Shown here: positions 15,244 through 29,563 of the stretch, in pieces | How positions within the stretch are numbered: position 1 is the stretch's first letter | Layout: every line of letters starts with the position of its first letter | Origin: Synchiropus picturatus | Taxonomy: Eukaryota | Direction of reading: 5' to 3' | Assembly: GCA_044231675.1 (NCBI GenBank) | Contig: CM094669.1 | Span: 2,929,643 to 2,993,642 of the forward strand | Length of the DNA stretch: 64,000 nucleotides | Made by a program: the position numbers and the translations under genes | Notes under the pieces: model-generated | The model's input: only the letters and a program-made list of their open reading frames with translations | What the model was told of the DNA's origin: nothing | Database searches by the model: none

Positions 15244-17707
15244 TCAGATGGTGTCGTATTCAAACGCCCTCCGGCCGGCCACAGCCACCCACTCGGCCAT
15301 GAAGAAAGTGACGGTTCCAGCGAAGCCAAACAAAACCAGAACCAGCAGCTGCCAGTGCAGGAGCAGGAAGTTGCTGTAGAAGAAGGCCACTGCCGCCATG
15401 ATGGACTGAGGGCCGGACAGGAGGTTATTCTGAGGTCCACGCAGGGTTCCAGTTCTTGTCAGAGGGTCACCTGGATGAACTTGAAGATAGCGAAAGCCGG
15501 GGCGCTCTCCTCTCGGAACATGAAGCCGATGATGCTGAGCAGCTGAGTGTTGAAGCAGCTGTCACCAAAGCCAAGTAGGAAGCTGCAGATCAGCGCCACT
15601 GCCACACTGAAGCACACAAGCGCATGTTTGCACAGTAACAAAAACAACACACAGATGCACAGATGCGAGCTGACGGAGACCAGGATCTGGTTCCTGCTCT
15701 GAGGTCAGCTACCTGGGCTCCATGTAGGCCTCCAGCTGGGTCCCCTCCTCTGGGGCGATTGGAGCGTCGCTCGCGATGTTCAGAAAAATCAGGTAGAAAG
15801 CGAGGTAGTGTGTGATGAGGCCCAGCAGAACCACAGGATTCCTGCCGAAGCGGTTACACCTGTTCAGCATCCCAAAGATGCCCCCTCCTGACCAGAGAGG
15901 AGAAGCGGATCAGGTGAGGAAGGCCAAAACAACTCAGCCAAGACTCACCTAAGATCTCCCCCAGACCGATGAAAATGCCAGAGATGCCGATCAGACTTTT
16001 CGCATCTTGGCCAAAACGGGTCATGGCACCGATGCACGTCCCGTACACGCCGCTGTAGAAGGTAAGCTCCAGCCCTGTCAGGTCAGAACCAGACGCCAAG
16101 TTCAGCAGATGATTGTGTCTCCTCAATAGCCACCAGGGGGCGCTAACACACATGATGGGCCACTCACCCGTGTAGGCACTGGCCAGACTAAGCAGGAGCA
16201 TTTCTTTAGTGACCAGCACTTTTCCCGCCTTCACTGCAAACGACAGGAAGCAGTTTCAACAACAAGCGATTTGCAGGGTCAAAGTCTGAGAGTGACTCGT
16301 ACCAAAGGCGTCCAGAGCCTGTGAGCAGAGGCCAGGGAGAGGCACGCTGCAGGAAGTCAGAGGACAAGGTTACTTCCTGTTAATATCTAACATGATGATA
16401 TTCAACACTGTGATGTCACTTCCTGAGAGCGACAGCCACACTCCTGGGACACCGACCTGGACGTGCTACTGTCCTCAGATGAGTCGGGGGCAGCATCGCC
16501 CTCGTCCAACGCCCCAGACTCTGAGACGGTTTTACGAATGAGGAAGAAGAGGAAGCAGCCAACAAGGCTGATGACAGTCAGAGTGACGAAGACGCTCTGG
16601 CGATCTTTATCTGCCGACACACACAGTGGAAAGCTCACTCCAGCTGCATTTTGAACGATATACACCTCCAACAGAAAAAGAAAAAACGATGAGCTCAAAA
16701 GCTCTCACCTGTGATGTGAACGTGGCCGTGCCATGAGCAGTAGATGTAGAGATTTCCAAAGAACAGGCTGCAACAGGAAGAGGAGGAAGATGAGCAGGAG
16801 GAAGAGATGGAGACGGCTGGAGGAAGTGGGGCAAGGTCACCTGAACTGAAGAAGAGCCCAGAATATTCCGCTGTTACGTCCGATCGTGGTGTCCGAGGAG
16901 TTAATGGCGAGAACATTTCCCTGCGCCGTCCACAAGACTGCAACCCAGGTTACCCCGGCTCATTAGTGACATGATGGAATGATGGAAAACAATTCCGATT
17001 CTGAGCAACTGAGCACTCGGACCCATCACACAGCCAATCCAAATGTGTGTGTCTGAGATTATATTGCAACACTTTCAAGTGCCTTATTCTTGCTGATTCT
17101 CATGAGGAGTCTCAGTGACGCTTGTCTTTGGTGGAAAAACATGAATAACTTCACCTGCCGCTGCAATCCCGACCAGAACCGAAGCCGTGTAGAAGGTCCA
17201 AGTGAGTGGGTAGATGAACACAGCAATGTAGCCACTGAGGAAGAAACCAGGCCCAGCAGAAATGTCAGTCAGAGCACGGCCACTCGAGGTGAGCCAGAAC
17301 ATCTACCTGTAGAGAAGCCCACTGAAGAACATAGAGAGCTGAGGGCCCACGACGGCGACCACCGACGGAGCAATGAGATTAGACGCCGAGAAGACACCGT
17401 AGATGATTGCCATGCTGCGAGGGCGACAGAATGTGAACCTCTGATCGACAACAACCAAAGCCGGCACTGGTGGAGTCTGAGAGAGTGAGTCACCTGGTGT
17501 AGCCGCTTCCATGGAACTCGGTAGTGTTGAGGCTCTTGATAACCGTTTGCTAAACAAAAACACAGCACAGATCAGCTCCCTGTTCGTCCCAGCTTCAGTC
17601 AGGGAGCCCACCTCTATGTTCCCGCACGTCTGAAATGCTGTGAACATGAACATGAAGCCGACGCCGAGGACGACGATGTTCAGGAGCTTCTTCTTCTCTG
17701 GATCCAT
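15244..17707 (-). CDS. mfsd11: UNC93-like major facilitator superfamily protein MFSD11 ortholog, about 12 coding exons. Start ATG at 17707, stop at 15244-15246. Exons lie at approximately 17613-17707, 17490-17545, 17307-17412, ~17165-17255, ~16845-16935, ~16712-16768, ~16445-16610, ~16155-16240, ~15950-16075, ~15705-15895, ~15470-15600 and 15244-15420.
   Basis: The N-terminus MDPEKKKLLNIVVLGVGFMFMFTAFQTCGNIE matches remembered human MFSD11 (MSPESKKLFNIIILGVAFMFMFTAFQTCGNV). Internal exons match MAIIYGVFSASNLIAPSVVAVVGPQLSMF, SGYIAVFIYPLTWTFYTASVLVGIAAA, SLFFGNLYIY and LELTFYSGVYGTCIGA. The C-terminus FFYSNFLLLHWQLLVLVLFGFAGTVTFF matches human FFYSNYLLLHWQLLVMVIFGFFGTISFF. Confidence 0.9.
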
Positions 17708-19677
17708 GGCACCGGCTTCGTCGATCACAGAGGCAGTGCGTGGTTGAAAAGTGACTGGCCTGATAGGAGGGTAAGATGGTCACTGGTGACATCATCATGC
17801 AACCTCCGAGACCATGAACAAGAAGAAACAAGCAGATACATTGTCATCCAACAGAATAAATCGAAGTTAATCTACTTGGTGCTAGGGTTTGCATGAACGT
17901 TTATTGCTCCAGACGCCTCCTGGAACAGGCAGGCGACCTGTCCAGGGTGTCCCCCACCTCGTGCCCAGGAAGCTGACCAGGCTCCCACCACTCCAGACGG
18001 GAATAAGCGGAAGAGCACGAGACAAAGTAAGAGGACCAAGTAAGAGGAACAAGAGGCACGAACCAACTTTAAAGCAAGTTTGTACCGGACGGAACTCTGC
18101 AGCAGACAGAACACGTGATCCAACTGAACATTTTAGCGTCTATTATCAGACAGGAGTTCTGTTTAATTGATAGAAAACACGGCATGCAGCTGCGTTGAAC
18201 TTCTAGCTGTAGGCTTCAAGCTTACCGCTAAAGTTGAACTACTGACGTCACTGCGCAGTTTTGGGTTCTACAAGCCGCATACTTTCTTCGGTTCGGTGCA
18301 GTCAAGCGACCTGACGGCGGCAGCGGCTGGTCTTCCGACAGAACCCGCTGAAGACAACAGGAACGCGTCAGTGAGTCATGTGAGGAAGTCAGCTGACTCT
18401 GACGTCACTAGTTAGCTTAGCTTTTAGCTCCATTACTCCCGTGGTGAATTTGCGCTAGTTTGTTTTTGTATTCATTCTGAATGACGGATTCATTTTCGAT
18501 TACAAAATGTGGGGCGTTAGAGAAAATTCAAACGTCAGGTCGCAAAAATTTAAGAAATATTTTAATTGAATTAAATTGGAAAATACATAAAATTCTCGAC
18601 GTCAATCACATAAGTGACATAATAATGATAAAACAAACTAATAGTCCAACAAATAAGTTTATAAAATAATAGTCCAACATATGTTTTATTTTATTCCTTA
18701 TTGCCCAACAAAATGAAGCCCTGAATCTATTGTACAGTGATGGAATAAGTAATGACAGGAGTGTTATTTCCTGTTAAATAATGGTGGGCCGTTTCTCTGT
18801 TGTACATATATGGCATATATGGAAAACGATGACTCCTGGTGGATAGTTTATTTCAGCGTTTGCGTTCCATGTTTTAACTTCAGACTATAGAATATCCCAG
18901 AGATGCAATTATATGACTTCAGCTGTCATAGTAAAGAGGAGTTTATGTTGGTCTTTTGTTGTAAACTATGTAAATGGACAATTCTGCTCCGACAGTACAG
19001 GAAGCTGAGTTTGTGGAGACTGGTGGTGGACCCCTGTAGGCACGACACCTGAGCCCCCAGGTACGGGCGGTGTCATCATAGTAGTACCTGGGTGTTCCCC
19101 TGAACAATCAACTCAACTGGACAAAAATACAAACGCAAGAAATGGCACAGCTCTCTGTGGTGGGATCATCAGCTGTTTTCTATGGCGTCGTCTCTTGGGA
19201 CAGAGACAAGTTAAGAGGGCCGACTCTGTCCTGGGCTGCTCTCTGTAGGAGGAGGAGGAGGAGAGAGACAGGAGGACTGGGCCCAAGCTGTCGTCCATGA
19301 CAACCAACCTGTCCCGCACCTCCAGACTGGAGGTTTCTGATCCAGTCTTGTTGCATGAAGGAGCAACTCTGTCATACCTTTCTACCTACTTATGTCAATT
19401 TTACAGTGTTAACGTATGCTGATGTTAATTGTGCATTTGTGGCTACTTAATGTATTGTTAATATAAATGTACATATGTTTATTGTTTGTCTTTAATGTCC
19501 TTCATGTTTTGATGCTCACTCAGCGGCTATAACAAGTCAAATTTCCCCATTGTGTGATCAATAAAAGAGTACGTTATTCCATCCCACAACCCCGAGCTCA
19601 GATTTGTAGGTTTTGCGACTTTGATACTGTTCTTACTCTCAACATCCGAGCACCGGGTCGCAGCGCTGGTCAGCAGA

Positions 19678-19727
19678 TGACGTCAGCGTCTGTGAGCAGT
19701 GACGTGTTTCGGGGCGTGTCTATAAAG
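19678..19727 (+). promoter_or_regulatory. Putative eif1 core promoter. A consensus CRE (TGACGTCA, 19678-19685) and a second GTGACGTG half-site sit about 35 bp upstream of a TATAAAG box (19721-19727), roughly 160 bp 5' of the ATG.
   Basis: Motifs were read directly. Spacing and orientation are appropriate for a TATA promoter. No expression data are available. Confidence 0.5.
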
Positions 19728-19889
19728 CCTTGTTTTCTTCTGCTCCAGAGAGCGACCGTCTCCATTTTGTGAGAGCAGCCGAGCTTCGTCACCGTGCCGA
19801 GACCCCCGCGAGCGACTTACACTTCCCAACCATCCAACGATCCACTTGCTGACGAAGTTATTATCCGAGAGGAAAGCCAATCTTGTCGT

Positions 19890-20926
19890 ATGTCCGCTAT
19901 CCAGAACCTCAACACTTTTGGTAAGCGGAGCTTTTCTCGTGCAGGCCCACGGCCTTGGTGGGGGAAGGGCGAGGGAGAAAGAAAAGCCGTTTTTACACCG
20001 TCTTTCGACAGTTAATTACCTTAAATCATCACCATTTCTCAAAGAATTGGTAAAATCGACCGAGATGTAGTTGTACTGTATGTCTGGGCGTTCGATGTTC
20101 GAGCCGTCTGCCTCGAACTTACCGGCCGCCATTAGGCCTCCACCTTGGCTTCCTTTTCGTTCGCGTCTATCGGAGACACTGTAATTTTCGGTAGATGGGC
20201 GCTCGTACTTTGTTCTTGGTGTTGGTTTACGACGTCCGTGTCGATTACGAAATATCCCCGCTGACATCGTTTGACAAAGCACCGGTTAGCATCGATTAGC
20301 TTACTGCTGCTAGCTAACTGCGCTGTGCGGCTGCGCAGTCGAGCGGAAATTTGACCCTTCGACCGCCCGGTGCCACATAACGACACAACAAAGGGATTTG
20401 CACCCGCTATTTAAAGTCGAGGATAACCGTAGTCTGGCAGTTGTGATTGACCCTGATATTTGTGTCTGCAGACCCCTTTGCTGATGCAACTAAGGGTGAT
20501 GACCGCCTCCCAGCCGGGACTGAGGACTACATCCACATAAGAATCCAACAGCGGAACGGGAGGAAGACCCTCACCACTGTCCAGGGCATTGCTGCCGACT
20601 ATGATAAACGTAGGCTGCTCAAAGCCTTGAAGAAGGTACGATGAGCTTCTGTCTGGGTGTTTGCTCTTTTTTCTGACACCGTCTTGCCCCCAACAGAAGT
20701 TTGCCTGCAATGGTACAGTGATTGAGCACCCAGAGTATGGTGAAGTGATTCAGCTTCAAGGTGACCAGAGAAGGAATATCTGCCAGTTCCTGACTGAGGT
20801 GAGTGTGTTGTCTTGGTGTCTTCAGTTGCTCACTTGTTCTCTCTGGATTGTGAACGTTTGTTCCTCTCCCACCCCCGTAGATTGACATGGTCAAGGAGGA
20901 GCAGCTGAAAGTCCACGGCTTCTAGA
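19890..20926 (+). CDS. eif1: Eukaryotic translation initiation factor 1 (eIF1/SUI1), complete. CDS join: 19890-19920, 20472-20635, 20697-20798, 20882-20926 (342 nt, 113 aa).
   Basis: Translates to MSAIQNLNTF|DPFADATKGDDRLPAGTEDYIHIRIQQRNGRKTLTTVQGIAADYDKRRLLKALKK|KFACNGTVIEHPEYGEVIQLQGDQRRNICQFLTE|IDMVKEEQLKVHGF*. This is near-identical to human EIF1, all junctions are GT-AG, and the 3'UTR has an AATAAA near 21290. Confidence 0.95.
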
Positions 20927-22260
20927 AGCTGCAGCCAGCCTCCCCCACCTCTCCTGGACAGCCATTGAAAAGACGCCCCCTTCCCCCTCCCATGTGCTGC
21001 TGTTGCTCTTCCTCTCCCCGACCCCCTCCGCAGCTCCTGATTGCAAACACGTGAATTACCTCCGACAAACATGGGACTCTCTAACACCGCCTCCCTACAC
21101 CACCAGGGGGCAGGCTTGCTCCAGCCAATACACGCCACTCCACACAACATCAGGGATGAGTGGTGACCCCTTAGACCCCTCCCGCTGTTCCCTCTGTTTA
21201 TTACCTTTTTAAATTTTCTTTTTAGGTCTTGTGCCGCAACAAGGAGGAACCGTTTCGTGTAACTTTTTTGTTTTGTACTTCAAAGTGTTTCAATAAAACG
21301 ATGAGTCTCCATATTTGTTGGGAGTGTCGTCATGACAACCAAGTGGAGTGTAGGACATTGCATGAGTTTCGAGAAGCAGCTGGATGATGGACACAAGCAG
21401 AGTTCTTAGCGTTTGGGTTCCGCTGCTCTTAATCTAATCAGGTTTACCGCGGGTGTCCTCGGAGGACTTGAAGTCGAGTGTGTCTGAACTGCAGCGGTCG
21501 TCTTGTTCCCATGAGCCGGCAAAATCCCTGCAGTGGTGCGCTCGGCTCCTTCAGTTCCTGAAATGCAATAAGTCTACAAGCATCTACAGTGAAGTACACC
21601 AGTGGAAAATTCGACTGGCAAGCAAGTCTGTTATGCAACAATTAACTTTTGGTTCAATAAAGATTCTGCAGTTACACTTTGTTCTTGTGTTTGATTCCTG
21701 CTCTGCAAGCTTGAATTACTTGAAGCTAAAATGTGCTACTACTTGTGGCTTGATCAGAATTATTCCTCACAACATCTGTCACTGCAACATTCTAAACAGT
21801 TTCGTCTGTTAAATCTGAAACGAAGACAGTTCGCGTTTTTCCTGTCACATTTTGTCCCTGATGACGCCCCGTCCGTTTCCGTGGCGACGCCACTGTAGCC
21901 CAAGCTAAGCTAACGTGTTCAGGAGCGCGGCGGGAACATCGGCGCTGCTTTGTTCAGAGACGCAGAAGCTTCCCGCCGTCTCAGGTGAGACTCCGCCCAC
22001 AGGTGAGCCTCTTTGAGCCACAATTAACTCACCCGTTATCGACAGAGCTGGGACAGCACGGTCGTTGCACGACAACAAAACTGGTGAGTCCTCGCGGCTC
22101 CTCTCTGGGTTGGTTCCTGCGGCTGCACAGGCGCCTGCAAGCAACAGGTCGGTCCCGCAGCTCTGTAACCAGAACAACTGAATGCTTCCATTTGAGTAAA
22201 AACCTTCCATATGTGCGTGTGTGTTCTCAGAGATGTGACCTCGGGAGGATTGAGGGGAAA

Positions 22261-22652
22261 ATGCCGGTAAGTATGTAGTATGTATGCTCTCATGTGTCAG
22301 CGCTCACCTCGCCTTTGGTCCTCAGGTTCTTCCGGTGTGGGAGCTCGCCGTCCCCCTTCCGGCTGTGATGATGATCACAGTCGCCCTCTACATCGTCATG
22401 GTTGCTCTTGGACTTTGGATCCGGTTCTGTCTGAAGGTGAGCTTGATCGGCTCTGTCACCTTTCCATCTAAACAGGAAACCCGATTCTTTCCTCAGGACC
22501 GGTGTTCCTGCCAGGACTGCTGCCCGGGCTTCTCCTTATGTGACCAATGTTTTCAACTGGCAGAAATGTGTGACTTCCGCACGCCCTCCCTGCGCTCGTG
22601 CCTGCCGGCCTCCTGTCCCAGGCCCAACGTGAGCGCAGTTTTCACCTGCTGA
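22261..22652 (+). CDS. Unrecognised small single-pass membrane protein with a cysteine-rich C-terminal tail. Exons: 22261-22266 (ATG CCG|gtaagt), 22326-22436, 22497-22652. An alternative splice from 22629 to a fourth exon at 22701-22787 (FGRWDCACTCQPPECDSCNCLCFEIRIK*) is possible.
   Basis: Spliced translation is MP|VLPVWELAVPLPAVMMITVALYIVMVALGLWIRFCLK|DRCSCQDCCPGFSLCDQCFQLAEMCDFRTPSLRSCLPASCPRPNVSAVFTC*. It has one clear hydrophobic helix followed by a basic stop-transfer and 13 Cys residues, with good acceptor and donor signals. An AATAAA lies near 22917. I could not recall a named family it matches. Confidence 0.5.
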
Positions 22653-23592
22653 TGATGATTTGACATTCAGACTTTGATGTGATGAATGTCTGTTGTTTCA
22701 GTTCGGACGCTGGGACTGCGCGTGCACCTGTCAGCCACCAGAGTGCGACTCCTGCAACTGTCTCTGCTTCGAGATTCGGATCAAGTAGAAGTGCCAGGAG
22801 TAAACCGAGAGAAAAGTTGGCTTTAAGCGCCATCCCCAGTCTAATCTTTGATACTTGTTTATATGAGGCTTTTGTGTGTGTGTGTGTGTGTGTTGTTTTT
22901 TTCAAATACAGTTTTAAATAAATTAATGATGTCGTTCTGATTTCTTGCACAGCCTGATGTTGAAGTCCAGAATTCAATGTATGGAAGTTAGACACGGTCT
23001 GAGTTAACATGACTTGTACAAGCGGTCGGTAGAAATCAATGAAATGGTTCAGACTCCGTGACAACAATCCCTTGTGCTTGTTTGCCAACAAAAGAGTCCA
23101 TGAACGCACCGCGGAGGTCTGTTGCCTAGCGACCGAAAACGCTCTTGTTTGTTGCGCCCAACGTGGTAATCACCGGAAGTAACAGCAGTAAGCTAGACGC
23201 TGTTACAAGCACAACATCCGATATGTTTCGTATTTTGGTTTCCGCTGCCGGAGCTCAAGAATCCGGCTGGAGGAGGTCTGATGAACCCAACGGAACCACA
23301 GTAGCAGCTCATTAGCAAGCTCTGGTCAAAAGTGTTTGAAAACTCGTCACAGGCTTTTTGTGCTGATCACTGGACCGTGTTTTATTTTGGAAGCATGCTC
23401 GTTGGTTTCCGGTCAGCACGTGCAATTGACACCCCATTTTCCACTGGGTCAGTGCAGAGCGATGTTTGGGAACATTGGACTTGGAAACGCCAGTCCTAGG
23501 AGATAGTTTCCTGCTGGGCTCTGGTTTTCATGCTCCGATCCAAGTCGTTCCGACAGACAGAGGCGGAGGAAGCTTCGGTGTCAGTCAGTATC

Positions 23593-26500
23593 ATGTCGGG
23601 TCTCAGCTTCTTGGACCTTTTAGACTCCTCAATCAGAGACTCCAACAAAGCGGCGGTGGATTTCAGTGCTCTGTACCGGTTTCTCCACGCGCTGCTGACC
23701 CACCTCGGGATCCAGGACCTGGTCCTCCGCTCCGGGCTTGTACAGGATGAAGCCGGCAGGGCAGTGACCACAGTGGAGCCGGGGGAGGAACCGCCGCTCC
23801 TCAACCGCGTCCAGCGCTGTGAGGACGAACTGACCCGGGTGAGACACGCGTGCTACCTCGAGAGCCATCTACACATGAACACTCTTCAGTGCTATGTCAT
23901 ATTGTGACGTCAACAGTATAACCACAACTGTAATTGATTCCCAGCGAGTGACATCGTCATCACGTGACAGTTTCTTGGCAACTTCGGGGTTGCAAGACTT
24001 GGGTCAAACTCAGATCGGACTCACACCAGATTCCTGTCTGGTTCCGGTCCGACTTGGTCCGCCCGCCTCCTCTCAGACTCGGGTCAAACTCTGGTCAGAC
24101 TCACACTGCTCGTGCTGAAGCAGCATCACTTCTGGTGATGGCAGCTGAGACAAAAGCGGGGCGGAGCTTGGCGCCATCTCAGGTGACCCCGGTGTGTCGC
24201 TCTGGCGCGAGCGAGTCCCCCCCGCTGTGCAGCTCACGAACCGCTGCCTGAATCATTCATGTCGACCCCTCCGCCGAGGTCAGTGCGCCAGACCTACACA
24301 CGCACGACGCTGCGCCGGATCCAGCAGGTGGCGCTCACACTCACTCACCTGCTTGATGACCCGACCGCTTCACGCGCATCCAATCAGAACCCTCCGCCTC
24401 TCTGCGCGAGAAACAAACCTGTCGCCATGACGACGCGCTGATGTCGGGTTTCTTCAGTAAAACATAATTTGATGAATTATTGACGAGTTAGTTTTCCTCC
24501 GTCTGCAACACACACTCATACATCTTTCATGCCTCGGCTGGTTAATTAACGAGCTGCGGGTCAGAGCTGTGGGGGGCAGTGAGGCGTTCATGTGACACCA
24601 GTTACACACCAACGCACACTCTCTGGAGGAATGTCACACACTCACATGTACACAGACTGGTGCGCACACACACTCTGTTTGTCAGGAAATGAAAAAGTCA
24701 TCAGGTGACGGACAAGTGGCATCGACAGGTCACAGGCCTAAGAGGTCAGAGGATCAACTCAATCTGAAACCAACGTGTGCAGGTCCCGCGACAATGTTCT
24801 CACACGCTCTCACCTGACTTCCTGCTTCTGTCTTTCGGCAGGTGACAGCTCTGTTCAGGGATCTGCAGCAGCACAGAAACCAGGAGCAGACGATGGAGGT
24901 GAAGGAGACCCAGGAGCAGATGAAGGAGGTGAAGGAGATCCAGGAGCAGATGAAGCAGATGAAGGAGATCCAGGAGCAGATGAAGGAGGTGAAGGAGATC
25001 CAGGAGCAGATGAAGCAGGTGAAGGAGACCCAGGAGCAGATGGCGGTGAAGGAGCTTCAGGAACAGATGAAGGAAGTGAGGGAGCTTCAGGAACAGATAA
25101 AGGAAGTGAAGGGCCTCCATGAAAAGATAAAGGAAGTGAAGGAGCACCAGGAGCAAATGAAGGAGCTCCAAGAGCCAATGACGGCAGTGATGGTCCTCCA
25201 GAAGCAGATGAAGGAGGTTGAAGGCACATTGTAGTAAACACAAACACAGAGAATCTACGACATCACTTCCTGTTTTTCTGCGACAGACGTGTGTCACCTG
25301 GGACGTCCTGCATGCGAGTCTGCTTGCGGGTCAGCAGGTGAAGCCTCACTGATGATGTCAGAGTTGGAGGCGGGACATGTGTCACTCAAATGAATTGATC
25401 TGGTGCCAACAGGTGTCACCAGATACCCGGGATGCCGATGCTTCACTGAGACACTTTTCTCCAGAACCTTCAGGCTCCTGCGAGTCCATGAGGGTCAAAG
25501 AAGACACGACAGGTCCTCGGGAGTCTGCTTCCTGTTTGGTGGGAGAACCATACGGGTCCAGCTTCTCTGAACAACACCAGCAGACTCTGGAGGCTCTTCG
25601 AGACATTGGTGGTCTTCGGAACCAGAGACTGGACCAGCGAGTGGCACTGCTGGAGGAGGAGAAGATGGACCAGGCCCAGCTGACTCCTTTGCACCAGCTC
25701 ATCAACAGAGGTGATGTCACTTCCTGTTGAAAGCTGACACTTCCTGTTGGCACCAGACCATTGGTTTCCTGTGTCCACAGGTTCTCTGGAGGTAAAGCAG
25801 CTGATGAAAGACATGGAGCAGCAGAGGACTTTAATGGACGACCTGAGGAAGCAGCAGAAGGTGAGTCTTCAAATGTCCCTTCGTGATCGAAAGTAGCTGA
25901 AACATTTAAGGTCATGTGACTGAGGACGTCCAGGTGTCCACAACTGCCAAGTCTTGTCCGAGTTTGTGTCCTAGCGTCGTGTGTTTTGTCTCTTCAGGTT
26001 CTGAATCAGTCTCTGCAGGATCTGGAGCAGAAGGCCACCAGCAAGTATGTGATGGAGCCCGACATTGTAAGTGGAACCAGCTCGTAACTTCGGAGGGTGT
26101 AACGGTTGAAGATGACCATGTGAATTACTCGGCACAGAAAGTGGATCAGATGGTTCTGGACAGCAAAGTGAGTCGGAGAGACTTCGACTCGGTGACAGAG
26201 CAGTTGAATGCCATGTTCCATGAGCTGCTGAATCGGGTGTCGGGTCAGGAGCAGAACTGGCAGCAGCTGATGGAGCGACTCTCCAGTGAGATGGACTGCA
26301 AGGTGAGGACCAGGAGTGGCTCACCATTTGGGAGTTCTGACTGTGTTCTCAGCTGAACAGACTGGAGTTGGACTCTGTCAAGAAACAGCTGGAGGACCGG
26401 TGGAAGAAGATCCAATCCAAGCTTCACACTCAGGAGGAGCCTGAGAACCAGGACGCCGCTGGACTCAGGAAGTAGGTGAAGTTGGGACGTATAGCTGCAG

Positions 26501-27959: not shown

Positions 27960-29563
<1,604 letters not shown>

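Follow-up and report, generated by a model that had tools for sequence, protein, structure and literature searches.

A four-exon gene of the dragonet Synchiropus picturatus for a small cysteine-rich membrane protein related to human LOC112694756

We analyzed a 64,000-nucleotide stretch of the Synchiropus picturatus genome (assembly GCA_044231675.1, contig CM094669.1, positions 2,929,643 to 2,993,642 of the forward strand; hereafter the window), which carries on its forward strand a compact gene for a small cysteine-rich protein with a single membrane-spanning helix. Four coding exons, at 22261-22266, 22326-22436, 22497-22628 and 22702-22788 (+), join as a 336-nucleotide (nt) coding sequence (CDS) that translates to 111 amino acids (aa), MPVLPVWELAVPLPAVMMITVALYIVMVALGLWIRFCLKDRCSCQDCCPGFSLCDQCFQLAEMCDFRTPSLRSCLPASCPRPNFGRWDCACTCQPPECDSCNCLCFEIRIK. 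This is a separate, genuine protein-coding gene that is already annotated in this species: the four-exon translation matches the GenBank entry 'uncharacterized protein ACB058_021354' from S. picturatus with 100% identity from end to end (E = 2.6e-70). Beyond this self match, BLAST-level similarity extends to 75 teleost homologues (E down to 7.6e-47), mostly named 'si:ch211-198p11.6'. An earlier interpretation of the letters alone (the sequence-only reading) had recognized a small cysteine-rich single-pass membrane protein here, and the exact GenBank protein, the 75 homologues and conservation from corals to humans bear it out; searching databases with the four-exon translation was the check that it had itself proposed. 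Its label 'unassigned' has to be dropped. The gene is known at this locus, annotations of the family exist in hundreds of genomes, and the human member was published in 2019 (PMC6886504).

All exon junctions of the gene are in phase 0, and the introns of 59, 60 and 73 nt all run from GT to AG. The coding part of exon 1 is ATG CCG (Met-Pro; 22261-22266) with a GTAAGT donor, in agreement with the GenBank protein, and is followed by intron 1 (22267-22325, 59 nt), which contains an in-frame stop. Exon 2 (22326-22436) encodes residues 3-39, comprising a short N-terminal tail, the motif LPxPA, a transmembrane (TM) helix at about residues 13-35 with Tyr24, and a juxtamembrane R-x-C-L-K; its boundary is shared with the loci of the cyprinid Pseudorasbora (L003) and the flatfish Limanda (L004). 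Intron 2 (22437-22496, 60 nt) keeps the reading frame and contains no stop codon, and the list of open reading frames (ORFs) shows exon 2, intron 2 and exon 3 as a single 122-aa ORF at 22284..22652. Retention of this intron would add 20 residues (VSLIGSVTFPSKQETRFFPQ) between the TM helix and the cysteine tail without truncating the protein; the residues that it encodes are absent from all conserved homologues. Exon 3 (22497-22628) encodes residues 40-83, the first cysteine-rich block, in which the alignment reveals the motifs A-E-x-C-D and P-[ST]..C-L..C-P. Reading through intron 3 (22629-22701, 73 nt) gives a three-exon product that ends in VSAVFTC*. Exon 4 (22702-22788), supported by alignment and by its low non-synonymous divergence (pN), encodes residues 84-111, FGRWDCACTCQPPECDSCNCLCFEIRIK, and the stop codon TAG (22786-22788). 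The 17 cysteines of the protein are thus split among exon 2 (1), exon 3 (9) and exon 4 (7).

Every splice signal quoted in the sequence-only reading is present: ATGCCG-GTAAGT at 22261-22272, CCTCAG-GTTCTT (exon 2 from 22326), CTGAAG-GTGAGC (exon 2 to 22436) and CCTCAG-GACCGG (exon 3 from 22497). The remaining junctions read CCCAAC-GTGAGC (exon 3 to 22628) and GTTTCAG-TTCGGA (exon 4 from 22702). Two details needed correction. The third junction, given as 22629|22701, breaks the frame as written and is 22628|22702, and the C-terminal exon of the three-exon model, credited with 13 cysteines, has 10 in 51 residues.

The 5' untranslated region (UTR) within the first coding exon spans 22231-22260 (+), as read from the sequence, behind an acceptor AG at 22229-22230; it contains no in-frame ATG, and an A occupies position -3 relative to the main ATG. 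Because this exon opens at an acceptor, there must be at least one non-coding exon further 5', probably in the CpG-rich region at about 21860-22090. A minimal upstream ORF, the start-stop ATGTGA at 22233-22238 (+), lies out of frame in the same exon, 22 nt 5' of the main ATG, and could dampen or otherwise modulate how the main ORF is translated. The 3' UTR (22789-22940, +; cleavage site inferred) includes a (TG)n microsatellite at about 22873-22893 and an AATAAA signal at 22917-22922, 129 nt past the stop codon.

Comparative evidence supports the four-exon model at a level far above chance. In tblastn alignments the exon boundaries fall at identical residues in Pseudorasbora and Limanda, and two Logan contigs from other fishes (L001 and L002) contain the whole ORF without introns and with identical exon 2-3-4 joins, and are therefore assembled spliced transcripts. 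A contig search for the exact dragonet protein returned no encoding contig on record. Divergence from the two transcripts is 0.19-0.22 at non-synonymous and 0.61-0.78 at synonymous sites, with exon 4 (pN 0.08-0.12) the most constrained; the ratio dN/dS comes to about 0.18 for the gene as a whole and to about 0.1 for exon 4, values that are approximate, with synonymous distances near saturation and the overall ratio against L001 undefined. In an alignment of 46 teleosts the exon 4 block DCACTCQPPECxSCNCLCFEIRIK is the best-conserved segment, and within it C89, C91, C93, P96, C98, C103, C105, E107 and I108 are invariant among teleosts.

These data decide how exon 4 should be viewed. The sequence-only reading had called it optional; it holds the family-defining C-terminal motif, which the three-exon product (...PRPNVSAVFTC*) lacks, and on the strength of this conservation we regard exon 4 as constitutive in evolutionary terms. 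The alternative is that the 90-aa read-through form is the main product and that exon 4 is included only occasionally. The reading frame past the exon 3 donor does stay open for 7 codons, and predicted isoforms that retain intron 3 occur in several fishes and mammals (P0064, P0078, P0117, P0126). However, the read-through tails differ between species, the GenBank model for S. picturatus includes exon 4, exon 3 is spliced to exon 4 in each of the two transcript contigs from related fishes, and exon 4 is the part of the gene with the highest conservation and the strongest purifying selection. We therefore consider it very improbable that the shorter form is the main product.

The dragonet gene is almost certainly an independently transcribed, four-coding-exon orthologue of zebrafish si:ch211-198p11.6 (ENSDARG00000097765), human LOC112694756/ENSG00000285043 and mouse Gm57854. 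The human protein NP_001352233.1 (139 aa; UniProt A0A2U3TZJ4) aligns with dragonet residues 9-111 at 39% identity (E = 6e-19). The aligned sequence (P0256) is the one printed for ENSG00000285043 in the supplement of the 2019 paper (PMC6886504), and the human CDS is likewise listed with four coding exons. The mouse counterpart is Gm57854 according to UniRef, and the mouse orthologue has been given the identifier ENSMUSG00000114515 (PMC6886504). NCBI names follow the same lines, with mammalian, lamprey and turtle proteins called 'LOC112694756 homolog' and the coelacanth protein 'SI:CH211-198P11.6'. Human LOC112694756, zebrafish si:ch211-198p11.6 and mouse Gm57854 share with the dragonet protein the LPxPA motif, the helix with its invariant tyrosine, R-x-C-L, the cysteine tail and a C-terminal ...CxCxCQxPxCxSxNCLCFEI[KR]x[KR]. 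The dragonet protein differs from the human one in lacking C66, C84 and adjacency to aldolase A, and it is shorter because it lacks the mammalian N-terminal extension rich in serine, threonine and proline and a CCPLC insert.

To define the extent of the family, a profile built from teleost sequences only was searched against 1.84e9 representative proteins, and matches were collinear and spanned both helix and tail. The E-values were 1.8e-17 in mammals, 2.8e-15 in geckos, 7.6e-13 in frog, 2e-10 in lamprey, 5.5e-8 in a hemichordate (Ptychodera), 6.4e-8 in orb-weaver spiders, and 3e-4 to 7e-4 in horseshoe crab, an amphipod and a nematode (Plectus). Acropora corals were reached by direct BLASTP with the dragonet protein (E = 7e-16). 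One profile match, a repetitive, low-complexity protein of 435 aa (P0110), was discarded as a probable false positive. Judged by these sequence matches, the family is eumetazoan and wider than the vertebrates, adding cnidarians, a hemichordate, chelicerates, a crustacean and a nematode to its 2019 scope.

Conservation was computed over 71 family sequences from coral to human. P12 and Y24 are present in 100% of them, A15 in 99%, R35 in 92%, and C37 and L38 in 89%, and the window protein has all of these residues. The conserved positions of the set are P12, A15, Y24 (in mid-membrane), L32, R35, C37-L38, C44, C48, C57, A61, C64, P69, L75, C79-P80, C84, D88, C91, C93, P96, C98, N102, C103, C105, E107 and I108. 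The features that characterize the family are found in the dragonet protein in the same order: an N-terminal LPxPA leading into a TM helix with an invariant tyrosine and a juxtamembrane R-x-C-L, and a C-terminal module D-C-A-C-x-C-Q-x-P-x-C-x-S-x-N-C-x-C-[FC]-E-I, here ending the protein as WDCACTCQPPECDSCNCLCFEIRIK. The gene also shares the family's four coding exons with phase-0 boundaries (Met-x, helix, first cysteine block, C-terminal block). Among 48 teleost sequences the dragonet is alone in lacking both of the near-invariant cysteines C66 and C84, each of which is phenylalanine; the C84 position is the first codon of exon 4 (22702-22704), which reads TTC where cysteine needs TGC or TGT. 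A distant invertebrate homologue on a Logan contig (P0132) carries the CxCxC..P.C...NCxCF module twice, at residues ~130-160 and 205-225, which suggests that the C-terminal module is an independent, duplicable unit.

The human member was discovered by Mudge et al. (2019) using PhyloCSF and described as an 'uncharacterised protein' conserved 'amongst vertebrates'; its CDS sits in the 5' UTR exons of ALDOA, with which it is co-transcribed, and it is expressed mainly in cerebral cortex and the central nervous system (CNS) (PMC6886504). Zebrafish ENSDARG00000097765 adjoins aldoaa and is yet a separate transcription unit (PMC6886504). We found no aldolase in the 64-kb window and none within 10 kb at the Limanda locus. 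As a positive control, aldolase matches were recovered at 17493-23014 of the Pseudorasbora locus, where aldolase A follows the orthologue 3.4 kb downstream, the same arrangement as in human and zebrafish. The window gene thus does not have the position immediately upstream of aldolase A that marks the family in human, mouse and zebrafish. Aldolase linkage varies among lineages and is not a property of the protein, so the homology is unaffected. Since the gene is separated from aldolase in both dragonet and flatfish, which are acanthomorphs, its conservation is not a by-product of ALDOA regulation.

This arrangement also bears on whether there is a functional protein at all. The contrary readings are an ORF that arose by chance, UTR sequence of a neighboring gene, which the sequence-only reading had named as a possible refutation, or an upstream ORF with a purely regulatory role. 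The co-transcription of the human CDS within ALDOA 5' UTR exons made a regulatory role conceivable in principle. The dragonet gene has its own polyadenylation signal at 22917 and no aldolase in the window, the zebrafish gene is transcribed separately, dN/dS is well below 1, and the amino acid sequence is conserved from cnidarians to mammals; the conservation data effectively refute the idea of a non-functional reading frame.

Searches of the literature for ch211-198p11.6, Gm57854, LOC103691235 and the UniProt and RefSeq accessions found no functional study, and LOC112694756 turned up only in lists of copy number variants, of differentially expressed genes or of microRNA targets. The name 'AC093512.2' is used inconsistently in older papers and was accepted only where tied to ENSG00000285043. 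One gene list files LOC112694756 under 'neutrophil degranulation', probably through identifier confusion with ALDOA. Recurrent deletion and duplication of 16p11.2 BP4-BP5 are linked to autism, schizophrenia and obesity. The gene content of this interval includes LOC112694756, placed between TLCD3B and ALDOA (PMC11354020, PMC11781945), and the human copy appears in such 16p11.2 gene lists only under that identifier. The family is among the few proteins kept from corals to humans without a Pfam model, a structure or a functional study. What the present analysis adds to the 2019 paper is the spread to non-vertebrates and the separation from aldolase in acanthomorph fishes. Fish orthologues offer a practical route to function, for example by knockout without touching aldolase.

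A Pfam scan of both translations and the 71 family members (E <= 1) gave nothing recurrent, only isolated matches to membrane families of no relation, such as Orai-1 and CD20, and neither the single protein nor the family profile matched any PDB sequence at E <= 10. The sequence-only reading had likened the protein to CYSTM (PF12734), which did not hold up: neither the window protein nor any of the 71 members matches CYSTM at E <= 1. Both are small eukaryotic membrane proteins with one TM segment and many cysteines, but in CYSTM the cysteines lie in or beside a C-terminal tail-anchor helix that follows a proline- and glutamine-rich N-terminus, whereas the dragonet family has the reverse order, an N-terminal helix and then the cysteine tail.

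Automatic names given to family members are varied. They include keratin-associated protein 4/5/9/10, sperm mitochondrial-associated cysteine-rich protein (SMCP), SCO-spondin, guanine nucleotide-binding protein subunit gamma 4 (GNG4), metallothionein, 4Fe-4S ferredoxin-type domain protein, protein delta homolog 2, LRP1-like and 'ALDOA isoform 8'. Without profile support, they look like annotation errors that arose from compositional similarity and were passed on from record to record. The keratin-associated label was rejected on the lack of a match to Keratin_B2 or any other Pfam family and on the confident TM helix; keratin-associated proteins (KRTAP), SMCP, SCO-spondin and GNG4 have only a cysteine- and proline-rich composition (CCxP, CQPP) in common with this family and, unlike it, no TM helix. 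The ferredoxin label, a UniRef automatic name for a felid orthologue, was rejected in the same way, with no Fer4 match at E <= 1 and no CxxCxxCxxxCP in the window protein. One fish fragment of the family is automatically named 'Metallothionein' in UniRef.

The orientation of the protein in the membrane bears on the chemistry of its tail. The dragonet protein contains one very hydrophobic segment, and AlphaFold2 predicts a helix at residues 13-41 with a predicted local distance difference test score (pLDDT) of 82-97. Neither a positively charged n-region nor a cleavable signal peptide precedes it. Counted over all 71 sequences, the 15-residue flanks of the helix contain 15 lysines and arginines N-terminally and 175 C-terminally (0 versus 3 in the window protein). 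An N-x-S/T glycosylation sequon is present in the N-terminal tail of 7/7 spider sequences and of the coral sequence, and the mammalian N-terminus is rich in serine, threonine and proline. The charge bias, the lack of a signal peptide, the N-terminal sequons and the composition of the mammalian N-terminus together indicate a type III topology, N-out/C-in, and the sequence has the three features of that class: one helix, no cleavable signal peptide and a positive C-terminal flank. We consider it probable that this is a type III single-pass protein whose short uncharged or acidic N-terminus would be lumenal or exterior, and glycosylatable in several lineages, and whose 75-residue cysteine tail would be cytosolic.

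The opposite orientation, a type II signal anchor with a disulfide-bonded lumenal or extracellular cysteine domain acting as a membrane-bound ligand or receptor module and possibly shed, has some points to recommend it. Dense cysteines are typical of extracellular mini-domains, the automatic names SCO-spondin, delta homolog and LRP1-like hint at such proteins (by composition only), and an N-V-S sequon occurs at the very C-terminus of a few spider proteins, which fits this orientation and counts against the type III assignment, although it is not conserved. The 15 versus 175 split of lysine and arginine and the N-terminal sequons conserved in spiders and coral speak against it, as does the lack of a cleavable signal peptide and of any extracellular cysteine-rich Pfam match. 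Nor do the cysteines behave as disulfide partners: the tail has 13-27 of them across the 71 sequences, an odd number in 44/71 (62%), and they are lost singly, C54 in 17 and C74 in 15 of 48 teleosts and both in only 3. We judge the type II orientation improbable.

With the tail in the reducing cytosol, as the type III topology predicts, stable disulfide bonding would be excluded. The tail contains CxC five times, CxxC three times and CC once, and it lacks a conserved histidine, as expected of a metal-thiolate site built from cysteines only. The variable and often odd cysteine counts, the unpaired losses and the want of a predicted metal-free fold for the tail (pLDDT below 50 in two AlphaFold2 runs) likewise speak for thiolate or lipid chemistry over disulfides. 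Our best overall explanation, which we hold at about even confidence, is that the dragonet protein is an orthologue of the LOC112694756 family whose cytosolic cysteine tail works as a metal-thiolate and/or palmitoylated adaptor. Under this proposal the tail, free of disulfides, would fold around Zn2+ or Cu+ as clusters of cysteine thiolates only; the membrane-proximal Cys37 (in R-x-C-L) and Cys42/44/47/48 would probably be S-palmitoylated; and the C-x-C-x4-C-x4-C-x-C-[FC]-E-I module would form the core metal site or a docking surface. Through its conserved helix face the protein, tethered to the membrane, could assist a partner membrane protein as a small accessory subunit or as an adaptor that handles metal, a role that in mammals would be played mainly in brain. 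Conservation of P12, A15, Y24, L32 and R35 from coral to human supports a partner-binding helix, whose invariant proline and tyrosine suggest that it pairs with the helix of a specific partner, in the way of other small accessory subunits.

Cysteines directly after a TM helix are typical palmitoylation positions, as in synaptotagmin, LAT and similar proteins, and the same topology would allow the tail to be a multiply S-palmitoylated 'cysteine string' on the inner leaflet, organizing or sorting membrane domains or vesicles with no metal site. Several observations fit: the positive-inside rule puts the tail in the cytosol, C37, C42, C44, C47 and C48 cluster right after the helix, the number of cysteines is variable and often odd with unpaired losses, the tail has no confident predicted fold, and the mammalian orthologue is expressed in brain. 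DNAJC5 (the cysteine-string protein), synaptotagmin-1 and LAT likewise have cytosolic cysteine clusters by the membrane, LAT and synaptotagmin are type III proteins, and neuronal expression in mammals is a further likeness. Unlike the dragonet family, to which they are not homologous, they have no conserved distal motif, and their clusters comprise 2-14 cysteines within ~25 residues of the membrane. Generic palmitoylation sites rarely hold exact spacing, whereas here the spacing and D88, P96, N102, E107 and I108 are kept from coral to human at up to 70 residues from the membrane; such exact conservation of C-x-C-x4-C-x4-C-x-C-[FC]-E-I and of the D, P, N, E and I around it favors a folded or binding module over generic lipidation. 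A purely palmitoylated string is to our minds rather unlikely. Palmitoylation and metal-thiolate binding are compatible with each other, and by analogy the protein may work in the manner of a tethered metallothionein or of a cysteine string.

That metal binding is the principal chemistry of the tail is possible, though on present evidence we place it somewhat short of even; the suggestion of a metal-binding tail in the sequence-only reading was in this sense a reasonable one. Vertebrate metallothioneins such as MT1-3 resemble the tail in their high cysteine content arranged as CxC, CxxC and CC, in having no conserved histidine and in having no stable metal-free fold. They have no TM anchor, no aromatic residues and no sequence match to the dragonet family, and they are ~33% cysteine. 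The cysteine density of the family's tail, at ~21%, is lower. Membership of the metallothioneins was accordingly rejected, there being no Pfam match, a TM helix and conserved aromatic residues at W87 and F106.

Several points weigh against the proposed metal-thiolate adaptor. In the only paper to discuss it, the human member is described as 'uncharacterised' (PMC6886504), and the mechanism is drawn from sequence. The tail has conserved aromatic residues (W87 and F106), which classical metallothioneins do not have, and neither the window protein nor the 71 members show a metallothionein, zinc-finger or Fer4 Pfam match (E <= 1). AlphaFold usually recovers zinc-binding folds without the metal; for the two targets modeled with AlphaFold2, the dragonet protein and a bat orthologue, the mean pLDDT was 58 and the tail fell below 50 in both. 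This failure could equally fit a disordered tail, though the alignments were shallow (71-74 sequences). Finally, the dragonet losses C66F and C84F mean that the exact ligand set is not fixed.

A more far-reaching version of the metal-thiolate adaptor would make the family a eumetazoan-wide, membrane-anchored Zn/Cu metal-thiolate cluster protein, resembling a tethered metallothionein on the cytosolic face, whose conserved helix would let it assist a transporter or channel as an accessory subunit. The human copy within the ALDOA 5' UTR would then be a neglected, dosage-sensitive factor in the phenotypes of 16p11.2 deletion and duplication. We think this unlikely as a whole; if a metal-thiolate accessory subunit is what these genes encode, the aldolase-uncoupled fish genes, the dragonet one included, would provide a clean genetic handle on it.

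The gene's neighbors in the window belong to other families. On the reverse strand, 15854-17728 holds exons of an UNC-93-family gene (MFSD11-like; Pfam UNC-93 E = 4.5e-14 and 6.5e-7). About 0.4 kb past the AATAAA, a gene with a DUF4795 domain begins on the forward strand (Pfam DUF4795 at 25916-26356, E = 5.8e-17), which we take to be QRICH2-like. The MFSD11-like and QRICH2-like flanks are presumably human 17q25-type neighbors. Further along, 29192-29551 on the reverse strand is the first coding exon of a gene with a UBA-like domain (Pfam UBA_8 E = 8e-15), which by the start of its predicted protein looks like UBALD1/2. Within the DUF4795 gene, a 30-bp tandem repeat (24880-25165, +; 9.6 copies, 84% match) encodes decapeptides resembling QEQMKEVKEI.

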